Source: an uncultured Halobacteriales archaeon (lineage in GTDB: Archaea; Halobacteriota; Halobacteria; Halobacteriales; Hikarchaeaceae). Taken from it: a stretch of 60,187 bases of DNA. The stretch spans positions 6,829 to 67,015 of the forward strand of contig CAZKPC010000005.1 of assembly GCA_964554565.1 (NCBI GenBank), written 5' to 3'. Shown here piece after piece: positions 53,000 to 58,194 of the stretch. Positions within the stretch are counted from its first letter, which is position 1, and the number at the start of each line of letters is the position of its first letter. The notes under the pieces were generated by a model. That model was given only the letters and a program-made list of their open reading frames with translations. It ran no database searches and was not told the origin of the DNA. The translations under genes and the position numbers were made by a program.

Positions 53000-55900
53000 T
53001 TACGCCGTCGATTCGGCGAGCGGCTCGATCGCGAAGCGCATCGTCACGCCTTCGACGTCCCACTCCCGTTCGTGGCCGTCCTGAACGGCGCCGAGCTCGC
53101 CGGCGCGGACCTCCTCCGTGATCAAGTCCTCGTGCTCGGCGACGAGCCCGGCGACCCGCTCGTCCTCCACGTTCAGATCGAGTCGGATCCGCTGATCGAC
53201 GTCGAGGTCCAGCTCCTTGCGCATCTCCTGGACCCGACGGATGACTTCCCGCGCGAACCCTTCGGCCTCGAGCTCGTCAGTCAGGGCGGTGTCCACGTAG
53301 ACCGACCCATCGTCGAAGTCGGCGCCGGCGACGGCGTCCGGGAGCCTTTCGACGAAGTCGACCATCTCGGCGGTAAGCTCGACCGTTCGCCCGAGCCCGG
53401 CGGCGACCGCGTCCTCCAGCGCGTCCAACTCGGGCTCCTCGACCGACGCCTCGTTGAGGGCTTCCATGACGGCGCTCGCGTCTTCGCCGAAGGCCGGACC
53501 TAACACGCTCATGTCGGCCTCGGCGGAATACCGCAGTTCCGACCAGGCCTCGCCGGGTTCGACCAGTTCGACCGATCGCGCGTTGAGCCGCTCGGCCAGG
53601 AGGTCCTCGTGTTTCCCCACCGCGTCGACAACGCCTTCTTGAGCCGCATCCAGGACGACTCGCGAGACGGGCCACCGGAGCTTCCGGCCCGCCCGTTGGC
53701 GGGCATGGGACCCGGCCTCTTCGACCGCCCGGACGACCTCGATCTCGGTTTCGAGCTCGGCCGCTCGGAGCTCGGAGTCGGCGGTCGGCCAGTCGGCCAT
53801 GTGTACCGTCGGGTGGTCGCGGTCCCCGGTCAGGCGCTGATAGAGCTCCTCGGCGACGAACGGGGCGAACGGTGCCAGCATCACGGCGGCCTCCCGGAGC
53901 ACGGTGGCGAGCGTCGTGTAGGCCGCGCGCTTGCTCGCCGTGTCGGCCTCCTCCCACATGCGTTCGCGGACCGTCTGGATGTAGTACCGCGAGACGTCCT
54001 CGACCACGAAGTCGAGCAGGGCCGCCAACGCGTCGTGGTGGGCGTACTCGTCCATCGCGGCCGTTGCCTCCGCCTCGACGGTCTGGAGGCGGGACAATAG
54101 CCAGCGGTCGAGGCGCTCGAGGTCCGCCCTGACCGCCTCCGGGTCGGCGGTGGCGGGCTCGAACCCGTCCATCTCCATGTAGGGAAGCGGGAACCGGGCC
54201 GCGTTCCAGAGGATGTTGAGCCGGCTTTCCATCTCCGCGATCTCCTCCCACGACACCCGCATGTCTTCGCCGCGGGCGGCGATCGAGAGCAGGAACAACC
54301 GCATCGGGTCGGCGCCGTGCTCGTCCATCACCTCCTGTGGCCGGATCATGATGTTCCGGGACTTGGACATCGCCCGCCCGTCGGGCATCTGGGCGTGACC
54401 GTGCATCATGACGCGCTCGTAGGGCACCTCGCCGACGGCGGCGGTCCCCATCCCGAGCTGTGACCAGAACCAGCCACGGGTCTGGTCGTGGGCTTCGATG
54501 ATCAGGTCCGCGGGCCAGAGTTCCTCGAAGGCGGCCTGGCTCCCCGGCTCGCCGGGATAGTCGAGCGTGCCCCAGGTCGCTACCGACGAGTCGAGCCAGA
54601 CGTCGAACACGTCCGGGACCCGCTCGTGGGTGACGCCGTCCTCGGTGATCGTGAGGTCGTCCACCGTCGGCTTGTGGAGGTCGATGGCGTCGGGATCGAT
54701 GTCCTGGTCGACCCGCTCGGCGAGCTCCTCGCGGGTGCCGACCACGATCACCCGGTCCATGTCGCCGTCCCAGTCGGGCGGCAGCCAGATCGGGATCGGG
54801 ATCCCCCAGTACCGCTGGCGGGAGACGTTCCAGTCCGGGGCGTCCTCGACGAAGTCCCGGAAGCGGTTGTCCCGGGCCCAGGACGGGTACCACTCGGAGT
54901 CCTCGATGTTGGCCAGGAGGTCCTCCTTGACGTCGGTGATGTTGATGAACCACTGGTCAGTGACGATCTGGATGATGTCGGTATCGCATCGCCAGCACTG
55001 ACCGTAGTCGTGCACGTAGGTGTCATCCGCCAGCAAATACCCGCGCTCGCGGAGGTCCTCGATGATCTCCGGGTTGGCCTCCCGGACGAACTGCTCCGCG
55101 TACGGGCCGGCCCGGTCATCGAACTCGCCGTCGCTCCCCACCGGGCAGAACAGCTCGAGGCCCAGCTCCGTGCCTCGCTGGAAGTCCTCCTCGCCGTGCC
55201 CCGGCGCGGAGTGGACGAGGCCGGTACGGTCGGCTTCGACGTAGTCGGCGGTATAGACCTGGAAACTGCCGGTCCCGCCCGGGTGAGCCACGAGGTCGTC
55301 CAGCGGGTGCTCGTAGGACCAGCCCACCATGTCCTCGCCGGGGACCTCCTCGAGGACCTCGTAGTCGTCGTAGCGGCCGTGTTTCAGCACCTCCTCGACG
55401 AGCGATTCCTCGATGTAGAGCACGTCGGAGGTACCGTCCTTCTCGGCCCGGACGGCCTGGTAGGTCAGGTCCTCACCGACGGCGACGAACGTGTTCCCCG
55501 GAATGGTCCACGGGGTCGTCGTCCAGATGACCAGCGAGCCCTCGCGGTCGGCCAGCGGGAACCGCACGTAGATCGACGGGTCCTCGACTTCGTGGTACTC
55601 CACCTCGTTCTTCGCGATGGCGGTTTCACACCGCGGGCATTGGGAGATCGATCGCTTCCCGCGCTCGACGAGCCCCCGGTCGTGGACCTCCCGGAAGGCC
55701 CACCAAGCGGCCTCCATGTACTCCGCCGTGACGGTCCGATAGGGGTTTTCCCAGTCCATCCAGACGCCGAAGGACTTGAAGTCCGCCTGCAGCTGGTCGA
55801 GGCTGTCCTCCGCGAAGGACCGGCACTCCTCGATGAACGCGTCGACGCCGAAGGCCTCGATGTCCTTCTTGTTCTCGAACTCGAGCTCTTCCTCGACGCG

Positions 55901-56188
55901 CGTCTCGATCGGGAGCCCGTGCATGTCGTACCCGGGCCGATCCGCAACGTCGTAGCCCCGCATCCGCTTGTAGCGGATGTAGAGGTCCTTGAGGCTCTTG
56001 TTCCAGGCGTGGCCCATGTGGGCCGCACCGCTGGTATACGGCGGCCCATCGACGAAGAAGAAGGGCTCGGCGCCCGACCGGTGTTCGCGGGTCCGGTCGT
56101 AGGCGTCGACCTCGTCCCAGTACTCGAACACCCGCTCCTCGACGGTCTGCGGGTCGTACCGGTCGTCGAGCTCGGCGAAACGGTCCAT
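53000..56188 (-). CDS. ileS: Isoleucine--tRNA ligase (archaeal/eukaryote type)
   Basis: DGPPY..HMGH, PGYDMHGLPIE, IWTTTPWT, TGLVH, DWNVSRQRYWG, DQTRGWF, AMSKS. An in-frame ATG at 56299 is an alternative start. Confidence 0.97.
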   Translation of the reverse strand: MDRFAELDDRYDPQTVEERVFEYWDEVDAYDRTREHRSGAEPFFFVDGPPYTSGAAHMGHAWNKSLKDLYIRYKRMRGYDVADRPGYDMHGLPIETRVEEELEFENKKDIEAFGVDAFIEECRSFAEDSLDQLQADFKSFGVWMDWENPYRTVTAEYMEAAWWAFREVHDRGLVERGKRSISQCPRCETAIAKNEVEYHEVEDPSIYVRFPLADREGSLVIWTTTPWTIPGNTFVAVGEDLTYQAVRAEKDGTSDVLYIEESLVEEVLKHGRYDDYEVLEEVPGEDMVGWSYEHPLDDLVAHPGGTGSFQVYTADYVEADRTGLVHSAPGHGEEDFQRGTELGLELFCPVGSDGEFDDRAGPYAEQFVREANPEIIEDLRERGYLLADDTYVHDYGQCWRCDTDIIQIVTDQWFINITDVKEDLLANIEDSEWYPSWARDNRFRDFVEDAPDWNVSRQRYWGIPIPIWLPPDWDGDMDRVIVVGTREELAERVDQDIDPDAIDLHKPTVDDLTITEDGVTHERVPDVFDVWLDSSVATWGTLDYPGEPGSQAAFEELWPADLIIEAHDQTRGWFWSQLGMGTAAVGEVPYERVMMHGHAQMPDGRAMSKSRNIMIRPQEVMDEHGADPMRLFLLSIAARGEDMRVSWEEIAEMESRLNILWNAARFPLPYMEMDGFEPATADPEAVRADLERLDRWLLSRLQTVEAEATAAMDEYAHHDALAALLDFVVEDVSRYYIQTVRERMWEEADTASKRAAYTTLATVLREAAVMLAPFAPFVAEELYQRLTGDRDHPTVHMADWPTADSELRAAELETEIEVVRAVEEAGSHARQRAGRKLRWPVSRVVLDAAQEGVVDAVGKHEDLLAERLNARSVELVEPGEAWSELRYSAEADMSVLGPAFGEDASAVMEALNEASVEEPELDALEDAVAAGLGRTVELTAEMVDFVERLPDAVAGADFDDGSVYVDTALTDELEAEGFAREVIRRVQEMRKELDLDVDQRIRLDLNVEDERVAGLVAEHEDLITEEVRAGELGAVQDGHEREWDVEGVTMRFAIEPLAESTA

Positions 56189-56225
56189 GGCGGTTCCTGC
56201 ATCGGCGTCGGCTAAAGCGTGACTA

Positions 56226-56266
56226 GTTCGCCCGGTCGGGCCTTCAGCGGCTTGCGCCGGGCGAAC
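56226..56266. repeat. Perfect 10-bp inverted repeat (stem-loop) upstream of ileS
   Basis: GTTCGCCCGG (56226-56235) / CCGGGCGAAC (56257-56266), 21-nt loop. Confidence 0.6.
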
Positions 56267-56386
56267 GGAGTCTCGATCGGTCGGATCGTGCTCTGACATG
56301 GTTGACAGTGAGTGGGGGTGACGGCGGCTGTGTTCCTCGGAGCCGGTGCACGTTCGGAGCGGAGTGGTGGCGGGTGATTGGGGCTG

Positions 56387-56464
56387 CTAGGGAGCCCCGA
56401 TAATAGCGATGCTGCTGGGACGGCTCCGGGCGGCCAATCGGGCGACAGCCGTGAACCGTTCCAT
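56387..56464 (-). CDS. Putative Ile-rich leader peptide (25 aa) of ileS
   Basis: MERFTAVARLAARSRPSSIAIIGAP*; ATC-GCT-ATT-ATC at 56410-56399; GGGGCT/AGCCCC hairpin (56380-56398) with the stop codon in its loop. Confidence 0.6.
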   Translation of the reverse strand: MERFTAVARLAARSRPSSIAIIGAP

Positions 56465-56490
56465 CACACGCTGGAGAAGCTCCTGAGCGG

Positions 56491-56498
56491 TTATAAAA
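56491..56498 (-). promoter_or_regulatory. TATA box upstream of the leader peptide
   Basis: TTTTATAA on the minus strand, 27-34 nt upstream of ATG 56464, in a GC-rich context. Confidence 0.65.
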
Positions 56499-56673
56499 GT
56501 TGATTTCGTGCTCGACACCACGGGTGACAGGTCTCGATATAGCCAATTTCGCTCCCCCGTCCTGTGAGGGATTCTCGGATCTCGATCCCGGCGCTGCCCA
56601 CTCCTTCTCCGAGCCACGCAAGCCCCCGGCTGAAAGAAAGAGGCTATTCAGTTCCAGACCTGAGGCTCGATCG

Positions 56674-57175
56674 ATGGAGGACGTCCCGGACGGACTCCTT
56701 GAGCGGCGTGATGTCGTTTACGAATCGACGACCGAGCAGCTCGACGCCACGGAGTTCGAGCGGGCAAAACGACGCGATGCTGAGCTCGCGGGCGCGGTCG
56801 CGGTGGCGGTCACCAACGCGGCCGGTGAGGTCCTGCTGGTCGAAAACGATTGGATGGACGGCTTCGGGTTCCCCGGCGGTGGTGTCGAACCCGGCGAGGA
56901 CTGGCGCTCGGCGGCCGTTCGCGAGGTCGTTGAAGAGACCGGCGTCGCCGTGCAGATCGAACGCCCGTGGCGCGTTCAGCAGCAGAGCTCGAACACGGGG
57001 ACGAACGGCTCACGGGGCACGTCGTGTTCTACAGGGGCTCGCCGACTGGGTCGACAGCTACCGCCCGGAACCCCGGAACCGGCGCCGAGGAGATCCAGGC
57101 GGTAGACTGGTTGATTCGATCCCCGACAGAGCCGTGCGCCCGGATTTGCTCCGGGCGGTGCTCGAGGAGCGCTGA
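56674..57175 (+). pseudogene. NUDIX hydrolase with two frameshifts (or sequencing indels)
   Basis: Nudix box GGGVEPGEDWRSAAVREVVEETG. Plausible reading continues in another frame after ~56985 (ELEHGDERLTGHVVFY...EEIQAVDW) and again after ~57112 (DSIPDRAVRPDLLRAVLEER*). Confidence 0.7.
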
Positions 57176-57189
57176 CCCATACGACGCTC

Positions 57190-58194
57190 TCAGAAGAACG
57201 AGCGAGCGTCGGCCGCGACGGTCTCGGGCGCCTCGTCGACGACTCCTTCGTCATGCAGCACCGTGAAGAACGGGGAATCGCTCCAGTAGTATTCGTCGAA
57301 GACGGAGCGCGCTACGAGTTCGACGACCGGCCGCATCCCGGCCTCGTCGGCGCTGAGATGCCAAGCGAGGTTGAAGGCGTTGAGCCCCGCGTCGCCGTAA
57401 TACTCGAGGACGTTCACGATCCCCGCGGCGAGGTCCGACACGATGTCCGCATCCGGCGCTGGGACCCCGTCCGGACCACCGACGCCGATGACCTGGCGGT
57501 GGTGATGCGGGGCGAAGGCCGCCAGCCAGTCGACGGTCCCTGTCGAGCCGATCCAGCGGTCGCCGTCCCGTTCGGCCTCGACCAATGCCTCCCAGTACGC
57601 CACGTCGTGTTCCTCGGCGTACGCGCGGGCGGCGCTGGTCAGCTCGCGCTGGCGGTTGGTCCCCCGGCCGTCGACCAGTGTCTGCAGATGGGGGTGAACG
57701 ATGGAACTGCCCGCCGAGCGCAGGAAGTTCATGTTGACCGAGGCGAAAGCCGCCTCGGTGTCGTGCTCGAACACGCGGTCGATGTATTCGAGCGCGGCGG
57801 CCAGGCCATTGCGGAAGTCGGCGCGTTCGAACGCGTCGATCGGCTTGTAGTGGGCGTCCGTGAGGGCGACGACGTTCGAATGGGTCCCGTAGGGATTGAG
57901 GTTCGGGAACGACGTGGCTTCGCCGACCGAGCCCCGGTCCATCCCGACCCAATCCGGGTATTCCGGCGTGACGTCCTCGACGGTGCCGGGACAGAAGAAA
58001 CAGTCCTCGTCGTCCGCCACCACGGACTCGATGTCCGGATCCTCCGCCTTGAGGAACGACTCGGGCACGATTCTGGCCTGCCGCTCCGTCAGTGGGTCCT
58101 CCCGGACCTCGACCTCGATCTCGACCGCTTGGAAGTCCTCGAGCGGGCTGTGGAACGAGGCGGTCTGTACCGAGCGATCGAAGCTGATCGACAT
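57190..58194 (-). CDS. GalT-like (HIT superfamily) nucleotidyltransferase
   Basis: REDPLT, CFFCPG, FPNLNPY, NFLRSAGSSIVHPHLQ (HxHxQ motif); ATG 58194. Confidence 0.82.
   Translation of the reverse strand: MSISFDRSVQTASFHSPLEDFQAVEIEVEVREDPLTERQARIVPESFLKAEDPDIESVVADDEDCFFCPGTVEDVTPEYPDWVGMDRGSVGEATSFPNLNPYGTHSNVVALTDAHYKPIDAFERADFRNGLAAALEYIDRVFEHDTEAAFASVNMNFLRSAGSSIVHPHLQTLVDGRGTNRQRELTSAARAYAEEHDVAYWEALVEAERDGDRWIGSTGTVDWLAAFAPHHHRQVIGVGGPDGVPAPDADIVSDLAAGIVNVLEYYGDAGLNAFNLAWHLSADEAGMRPVVELVARSVFDEYYWSDSPFFTVLHDEGVVDEAPETVAADARSFF

Follow-up and report, generated by a model that had tools for sequence, protein, structure and literature searches.

What does a short open reading frame (ORF) that ends in isoleucine codons and runs directly into a hairpin do upstream of ileS, the isoleucyl-tRNA synthetase gene, in an uncultured archaeon of the Halobacteriales? 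The locus lies in a 60,187-nt stretch of this organism's DNA, here called the window, and all coordinates below refer to the minus strand of that window unless stated otherwise. An earlier, sequence-only reading of the stretch had proposed ribosome-mediated attenuation at this site. We consider it likely that ileS is preceded by a cis-acting element through which the ribosome senses the supply of isoleucyl-tRNA. Four kinds of observation carry this view: the anatomy of the locus, the conservation of its layout, the constraints that the leader ORF shows as a coding sequence, and the match between the amino acid that recurs in a leader and the gene that follows. Judged by sequence comparison, the element belongs, as an Ile-specific variant, to a family of leaders that stand before ilvB, the gene for biosynthetic-type acetolactate synthase, throughout Halobacteria.

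The locus comprises the following parts.

56491–56498, minus strand: TATA box of the distal promoter, P1, about 30 nt upstream of the leader ATG.
56387–56464, minus strand: leader ORF of 25 codons plus a TAG stop (ATG 56464–56462, TAG 56389–56387).
56417–56421, minus strand: GUCCC, a possible alternative partner of the hairpin 5' arm, within the leader ORF.
56399–56410, minus strand: proposed regulatory codon block Ile-Ala-Ile-Ile (ATC GCT ATT ATC), directly abutting the hairpin.
56380–56398, minus strand: hairpin 1, with a 6-bp G+C stem and a 7-nt loop that contains the leader TAG.
56300–56379, minus strand: C-rich, G-poor spacer of 80 nt, without T runs of three or longer and without a further small ORF.
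56189–56299, minus strand: in-frame ATG and 37-codon N-terminal extension of IleS.
56211–56230, minus strand: proximal promoter, P2 (TTTA at 56216–56213), about 28 nt upstream of ATG 56188.
53000–56188, minus strand: ileS, isoleucine–tRNA ligase, from its conserved start (Pfam, TIGR00392).

The physical inventory given by the sequence-only reading, consisting of a TATA box, an ATG, a 25-codon ORF with three clustered Ile codons, and a GGGGCT/AGCCCC hairpin with the stop in its 7-nt loop followed by a C-rich tract, is present as claimed. The TATA box, TTTTATAA at 56498–56491, is read directly from the minus strand, and its spacing from the ATG is such that a transcript from P1 would be leaderless or nearly so. 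The only three Ile residues of the leader are codons 19, 21, and 22, all within the last seven codons, giving the cluster of cognate codons that marks a classical attenuator. They are followed by the 5' arm of hairpin 1 (GGGGCT, 56398–56393), its loop (56392–56386), and its 3' arm (AGCCCC, 56385–56380). From the leader stop to the next in-frame ATG, at 56299, there are 87 nt, of which 51% are C and 17% G. The gene downstream is indeed an isoleucyl-tRNA synthetase, scoring 857.8 bits against TIGR00392 (cut-off 621.4), but its start required revision: the conserved start of IleS is the second ATG, at 56188, from which 41 of 41 genomes match from residue 1, and ATG 56299 therefore opens a 37-codon in-frame extension. 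An upstream ATG that opens in frame into ileS is found at all four ileS-type loci described below and is absent from relatives that lack the leader; in the window, it is probably the start used on P1 transcripts. A DNA alignment hints that the extension resembles the 5' end of ilvB, from which it might derive. Two predicted promoters thus precede ileS, distal P1 and proximal P2, and the P2 motif stands at the same distance upstream of the gene in most of the 28 related loci shown.

Hairpin 1 taken alone is moderately unusual, with a folding energy of −11 kcal/mol (z = −2.41; 4 of 200 shuffles fold equally well). The composite arrangement was defined as a TATA-like box, an ATG, an ORF of 14–45 codons, Ile or Val right before a GGG codon, and a G4...C4 hairpin with an in-frame stop. 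Scanning both strands of the whole 2.3-Mb genome for this arrangement returned a single match, the window element, and the reversed and complemented controls returned none. A broader scan of the same genome, in which the stop of a small leaderless ORF had to fall in a hairpin and the final codons had to repeat one amino acid, whichever it was, returned two matches, the Ile leader of ileS and a Phe leader of pheS, with one match in the controls. The composite signature is not due to chance.

The element is also kept outside the window's genome. Among the ileS loci of related genomes it occurs in 3 of 28, these being the window and two genomes, G009 and G003, whose IleS proteins are 82% (over the length of the G009 protein) and 70% identical to the window's, respectively. 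Metagenomes supplied 80 ileS loci, 78 of them with at least 300 nt of upstream sequence, and two of the 78 carry the element; as these two are identical over the 345 nt shown, they amount to one additional lineage. The total for ileS-type leaders is four lineages (the window, two related genera, and one metagenome lineage), in which the N-terminal 150 residues of IleS are 71–85% identical to those of the window. Common to all four are a TATA-like box, an ORF of 23–27 codons, terminal Ile codons followed by Gly-Ala, a hairpin containing the stop, a C-rich spacer of 66–87 nt, and the upstream in-frame ATG. Comparison of the window with G009 shows only synonymous differences in the Ala and Ile codons and, in one stem pair, a change from U-A to C-G. 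The latter is a compensatory change, of the kind that the sequence-only reading had proposed to look for by covariation analysis: across 40 leaders compared, the G4/C4 core of the hairpin is invariant and compensatory changes flank it.

Homologous leaders stand before other genes, as emerged from pattern searches covering the family plus about 400 genomes of the class. In genera g64 (four genomes), g45 (two), and g9 (two), ilvB is preceded by a near-identical, Ile-rich leader, and the genes behind it score above the TIGR00118 cut-off; in g7, this leader stands before an ACT-domain gene. In some Ile-rich tails, the last 15 codons include six or seven Ile. The other pattern matches lay inside ordinary genes or antisense to them. 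A Val+Ile variant, which ends in Ile/Val-Gly-Ala/Val and in which a Val codon lengthens the stem, stands before ilvB in 28 of the 30 Halobacteria that were drawn evenly for this comparison (27 found by script, one by eye) and in ten of ten sampled g31 genomes. A covariance model of this variant matched in 103 of 151 genomes, with a single match in 100 of them. Where the position of ilvB was already known, the match lay at ilvB; 16 matches were fetched, and ten of these stood before ilvB, one was an orphan leader, and five were false, falling in coding sequence. The family can be defined by a TATA-like box about 25–33 nt before the ATG, an ORF of 19–34 codons, Ile and/or Val codons abutting a GGG codon, and a G4...C4 hairpin that holds the stop. 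Every one of these items is found in the window element, which belongs to the Ile-rich, Val-poor type of the two. The expectation of the sequence-only reading that relatives would keep the arrangement is borne out by the layout before ileS in four lineages, by the homologous leaders before ilvB, and by the Phe leader before pheS.

No biosynthetic ilvB or ilvC scored above cut-off in the window's genome (G000), G002, G009, or G003, genomes that are 67–83% complete; G008 carries both genes. Although the genomes are incomplete, both genes are missing independently in four of them, which suggests that the window's clade is unable to synthesize branched-chain amino acids and uses its Ile leader for ileS only.

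Several regularities argue that the leader ORF is read as codons. In 40 of 40 leaders, spanning 14 ORF lengths from 19 to 34 codons, the GGG (Gly) codon that opens the hairpin shares the frame of the ATG, and in all 40 the stop falls in the loop or at the junction of the loop and the 3' arm, be it TAG (25 leaders), TAA (8), or TGA (7). A TATA-like, A/T-rich hexamer, judged by eye, lies between −36 and −19 in 39 of 39 tabulated leaders, the N-terminal parts of which are not conserved. Composition changes sharply along the ORF. Within the last ten codons of the four ileS-type leaders, Ile accounts for 10 of 40 residues (25%; 3, 4, 2, and 1 per leader) and Val for 7.5%, compared with 0 Ile among 44 residues in the heads and 3.1% Ile in the proteome, which is an 8-fold enrichment of Ile in the tails. 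The corresponding tails before ilvB contain 34% Ile and 11% Val in the Ile type and 17% Ile and 24% Val in the Val+Ile type, against backgrounds of about 3% Ile and 9% Val, and leader heads contain 0–3% Ile, except for the single ACT-gene leader (1 Ile in 16 residues). The rare codon ATT makes up 20 of 42 (48%) and 33 of 46 (72%) of the tail Ile codons, versus about 5.6% in the main ORFs and the genome. Finally, the amino acid that recurs in a tail varies with the gene behind the leader, with Ile before ileS, Val+Ile before ilvB, and Phe before pheS.

The Phe leader of the window's own genome lies on another contig (C50, locus L249), about 180 nt upstream of pheS. It is a 26-codon leaderless ORF with four Phe among its last eight codons and a TGA stop in the loop of a 6-bp G+C hairpin. 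Such a leader precedes pheS in four of five genomes examined (the window's and three of four others); its length in these four is 26–28 codons, being 26 in the window's genome and in both g31 genomes (G061 and G039). In Haloferax volcanii, a long 5' untranslated region (UTR) mapped before pheS by differential RNA sequencing (dRNA-seq) likewise contains a 26-codon ORF, and another mapped long 5' UTR, with a 23-codon ORF, precedes a Trp-tRNA ligase gene (Babski et al. 2016, PMC4983044). These two upstream ORFs (uORFs), whose transcription start sites were mapped experimentally, are probably of the same class as the window leader. The part of that report which lists them presents them as possible small proteins or uORFs, with no discussion there of codon content, hairpin, or regulation, and neither ileS nor ilvB is among the entries of its Table 2 (PMC4983044). 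We hold it to be an even question whether Halobacteria carry a general class of amino-acid-specific leaders, each with its stop in a hairpin, that control ileS, pheS, perhaps trpS, and ilvB by ribosome stalling. More broadly, the leader family suggests that ribosome stalling serves archaea, as it does bacteria, to sense the supply of amino acids.

The model that we infer for the window would operate as follows. Transcripts from P1 would start at the leader ATG or a few bases before it, and ribosomes would translate the 25-codon ORF directly from this leaderless message. With charged tRNA-Ile in ample supply, the ribosome would pass the Ile codons, melt the hairpin, terminate in its loop, and depart, whereupon the hairpin would re-form. 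When charged tRNA-Ile is scarce, the ribosome would wait at the Ile codons, the rare ATT among them. The geometry gives the strongest hint at the mechanism: the regulatory codons end 0–3 nt before the 5' arm of the hairpin, and because of this a ribosome awaiting Ile-tRNA would have to hold that arm, 0–9 nt downstream, in its mRNA channel; formation of the hairpin would be blocked and the 3' arm left free. The fate of the downstream RNA would then change, such that Ile starvation would yield more of the extended IleS beginning at ATG 56299, atop constitutive expression from P2. Two candidate outputs, premature termination or RNA decay on the one hand and altered translation from the downstream start on the other, appear to us about equally plausible.

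Set against the attenuation proposed by the sequence-only reading, these results support the sensor half, through conservation, frame, Ile enrichment, and the cognate match between leader and gene, and lend no support to the output half. The missing U-tract had been noted from the outset: no T run of three or more occurs in the window spacer, T runs are not conserved over 39 leaders, and a terminator scan found none within the leader, which accordingly lacks the intrinsic terminator of classical attenuators. Oligo-T termination was dropped as a general output because T runs are absent in the window and not conserved in the family. The suggestion that a factor of the aCPSF1/FttA type terminates transcription on the C-rich tract is not supported either, since FttA is reported to prefer U-rich RNA, in a nascent stretch about 23–36 nt behind the 3' end (PMC11616081), and the tract is 51% C with no T run. 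Translational control through pairing of the leader with the start region found no backing in the window, where the best duplex, at −14.7 kcal/mol, had z = +0.84 relative to shuffles; for this reason we also set aside sequestration of the start site there, as in translational attenuation of the erm and cat type.

Some ilvB leaders do show contiguous complementarity between the 3' part of the leader and the ilvB start. In genus g15 (L106–L122), a base located two positions ahead of the ilvB ATG changes in concert with the third base of the leader's final Ile codon (ATT or ATC), across more than 150 nt. Seven of eight sequences retain the pair, which suggests pairing of the regulatory codons with the ilvB start in these leaders. 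Together, the complementarity and the covarying pair make a translational output plausible for some ilvB leaders. Other candidate pairings yielded less. The GUCCC motif that could compete for the hairpin 5' arm is present in all four ileS-type leaders, in 5 of 36 others, and in about 16% of control windows, and it counts for little given the relatedness of the four lineages. Downstream, the leaders compared offered no convincing partner for the freed 3' arm, and pairing of the mRNA 5' end with the spacer, suggested by three sequences, was lost on adding a fourth. Both in the window and at locus L208, the TAG is all that separates the leader ORF from an extended ileS ORF in the same frame. This does not hold at L002 and L008; stop-codon read-through to give a leader–IleS fusion was therefore rejected as a conserved feature, and the common frame is probably a coincidence.

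Several points weigh against the proposed sensor, beginning with the lack of any terminator-like signal and of start pairing in the window. Regulatory codons are few, both in the ileS-type leaders, where their number falls to one, and before ilvB, where leader L130 has none. The ileS form is rare among the genome and metagenome loci counted above, the two metagenome carriers being identical at that, and because relatives are not independent, counts across them overstate the support. We also searched sequencing runs, using the homologous ilvB leader of G061 as the query because the window comes from an uncultured genome. The search gave 24 runs, with 17 RNA runs among those that contain the query; four of the RNA runs are assembled contigs that span the whole 1 kb and are uninformative on starts, ends, and levels. 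Lastly, ileS owns a conserved promoter, and the leader unit could consequently add little or be vestigial.

This last point leads to the alternative that survives best, namely that the ORF is a constitutive uORF without sensing, serving ribosome loading or a fixed low expression from a second promoter, or else what remains of an ilvB control region that was lost. In the clade that has the ileS form, neither ilvB nor ilvC is detectable, ileS retains its own promoter, and one ileS-type leader has a single Ile codon. We nevertheless regard this account as unlikely. A relic would decay, and here the ORF, the stop position, and the hairpin are kept in four lineages whose IleS N-termini are only 71–85% identical, with changes that are synonymous or compensatory; a generic loading ORF, for its part, would not be expected to match Ile to ileS and Phe to pheS in one genome.

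Alternatively, the element might act purely as RNA, as a binding site for some protein, small RNA, or ligand, with the ORF incidental. Such a role would accommodate the invariant G4/C4 core and the compensatory stem changes, and further conserved blocks and a second hairpin are present within the spacers. It would leave unexplained why the frame is kept in every leader across 14 lengths, why the stop stays in the hairpin with any of the three stop codons, why the ATG is always at a leaderless distance from a TATA-like box, why Ile and Ala codons change synonymously, and why the amino acid of the tail follows the downstream gene. Moreover, a search of positions 55500–57500 against Rfam 15 gave no family match at E values up to 10, apart from two chance-level matches elsewhere, and eight related loci gave none. 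We judge an RNA-only element to be distinctly unlikely.

A further possibility is nascent-peptide arrest of the TnaC type, in which the C-terminal peptide would stall the ribosome near the stop in response to free isoleucine and shield the RNA from a termination or decay factor. Conservation within the leader is highest at the C-terminal motif and the nearby stop, and the G-poor tract directly downstream can be likened to the Rho site that follows tnaC. Yet the distance from Gly-Ala to the stop varies from 0 to 2 codons, with differing residues in between, and the Gly-Ala codons are accounted for by the sequence of the stem. Tails that switch amino acid with the gene (Phe, Val+Ile, Ile) fit codon sensing better, and rare codons are favored, making peptide arrest decidedly improbable. 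Although many small ORFs are translated in haloarchaea (PMC10117724, PMC7261190), it is very improbable that the leader is an independent small-protein gene lying upstream of ileS by happenstance, given that its N-terminal two thirds are unconserved and its length variable, that only the last 5–7 residues are kept, these overlapping the hairpin, and that the ORF is always found just upstream of the genes of one pathway. A chance ORF and hairpin in G+C-rich intergenic DNA, to which the modest z score of the hairpin by itself and the abundance of open frames in high-GC DNA might point, deserves hardly any credence in view of the composite scans (one match versus none in controls, two versus one) and of the retention of the element in other genera.

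The ilvB loci show additional features of their own. An orphan leader of the Val+Ile type (locus L229, G173) is followed by a 45-codon ORF and a T-rich, terminator-like run, with no ilvB. Two acetolactate synthase paralogues per genome occur in G075 (L078/L234), G008 (L131/L147), and G012 (L132/L146); in G075, an Ile-rich leader precedes one paralogue and a Val+Ile leader the other, a pairing reminiscent of the isozyme-specific leaders of enterobacteria. Among ilvB leaders L101–L130, the distance from the leader stop to the ilvB ATG, 115–178 nt, equals 1 modulo 3 in 26 of 27, and spacer indels within one genus are all multiples of three. At the Val+Ile loci, ilvB is in the +1 frame relative to the leader, and the G4 run would permit a +1 slip; counter to such a slip, the ilvB frame is interrupted by stops in 5 of 27 spacers. 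By eye, L127, L117, L106, L101, and L111 have a second small ORF in the spacer whose TGA overlaps the ilvB ATG, a layout known for termination-reinitiation coupling and absent from the window ileS leader. On the far side of the window's ileS leader, across the intergenic region, a divergent NUDIX gene starts at 56674 on the plus strand, too distant for the P1 TATA box to be its leaderless promoter. This gene (56674–57266, plus strand) seemingly continues in other frames past about residue 100, which points to frameshifts or assembly errors.

In bacteria, attenuation by leader peptides is textbook knowledge; it needs coupled transcription and translation as well as hairpin-plus-U terminators. 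Archaea couple transcription and translation but terminate differently, and archaeal RNA polymerase is not known to use bacterial intrinsic terminators. Among the closest parallels is the leader of ilvBNC in Corynebacterium, which, going by the title of Morbach et al. 2000, is translated without a ribosome-binding site. Also a branched-chain-amino-acid-rich ORF before ilvB and likewise a discovery of comparative genomics, it differs in being bacterial, in having a proven terminator hairpin, and in showing no sequence similarity to the archaeal leaders; it is described as the ilvB-II motif (Narunsky et al. 2023, PMC10272879) and by a three-hairpin model (PMC11857589). Before synthetase genes, leader-peptide attenuators are described for pheST of gamma-proteobacteria and for trpS and leuS of some Streptomyces (Seliverstov et al. 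2005, PMC1262725). The window leader resembles these as a short ORF rich in cognate codons upstream of a synthetase gene, with the codons beside a hairpin and charged tRNA sensed, in our model, through the position of the ribosome. Unlike them, it is archaeal and leaderless, holds its stop within the hairpin loop, is accompanied by a second, proximal promoter, and is without a hairpin-plus-U-tract terminator. The same gene, ileS, is regulated in Firmicutes and Actinobacteria by T-box leaders (PMC1262725), which also read uncharged versus charged tRNA-Ile in cis in the 5' leader but do so by binding the tRNA directly, with no need for translation; the T-box model has no match at positions 55500–57500 or in the eight related loci. 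In the full-text literature, subscription journals and supplements lying outside the search, we found bacterial counterparts only and no description of a leader-peptide attenuator in archaea; a search there for a 'leuA-Halobacteria' RNA motif likewise brought up no such motif. What would be new is leader-peptide sensing in another domain of life, built on a different architecture.

If the model holds, the window element and its relatives would be the first demonstration in Archaea that amino acids are sensed by an attenuation-type mechanism coupled to translation, and the output step would itself be new, since it would work without a terminator of the bacterial style. A codon-specific family would make archaeal gene control by ribosome position directly testable, and testable in model haloarchaea, because members precede ilvB in all ten sampled g31 genomes and uORFs are mapped in Haloferax volcanii. 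The family flags short ORFs that genome annotation has overlooked, and it would provide natural, amino-acid-responsive control parts for archaeal genetics.

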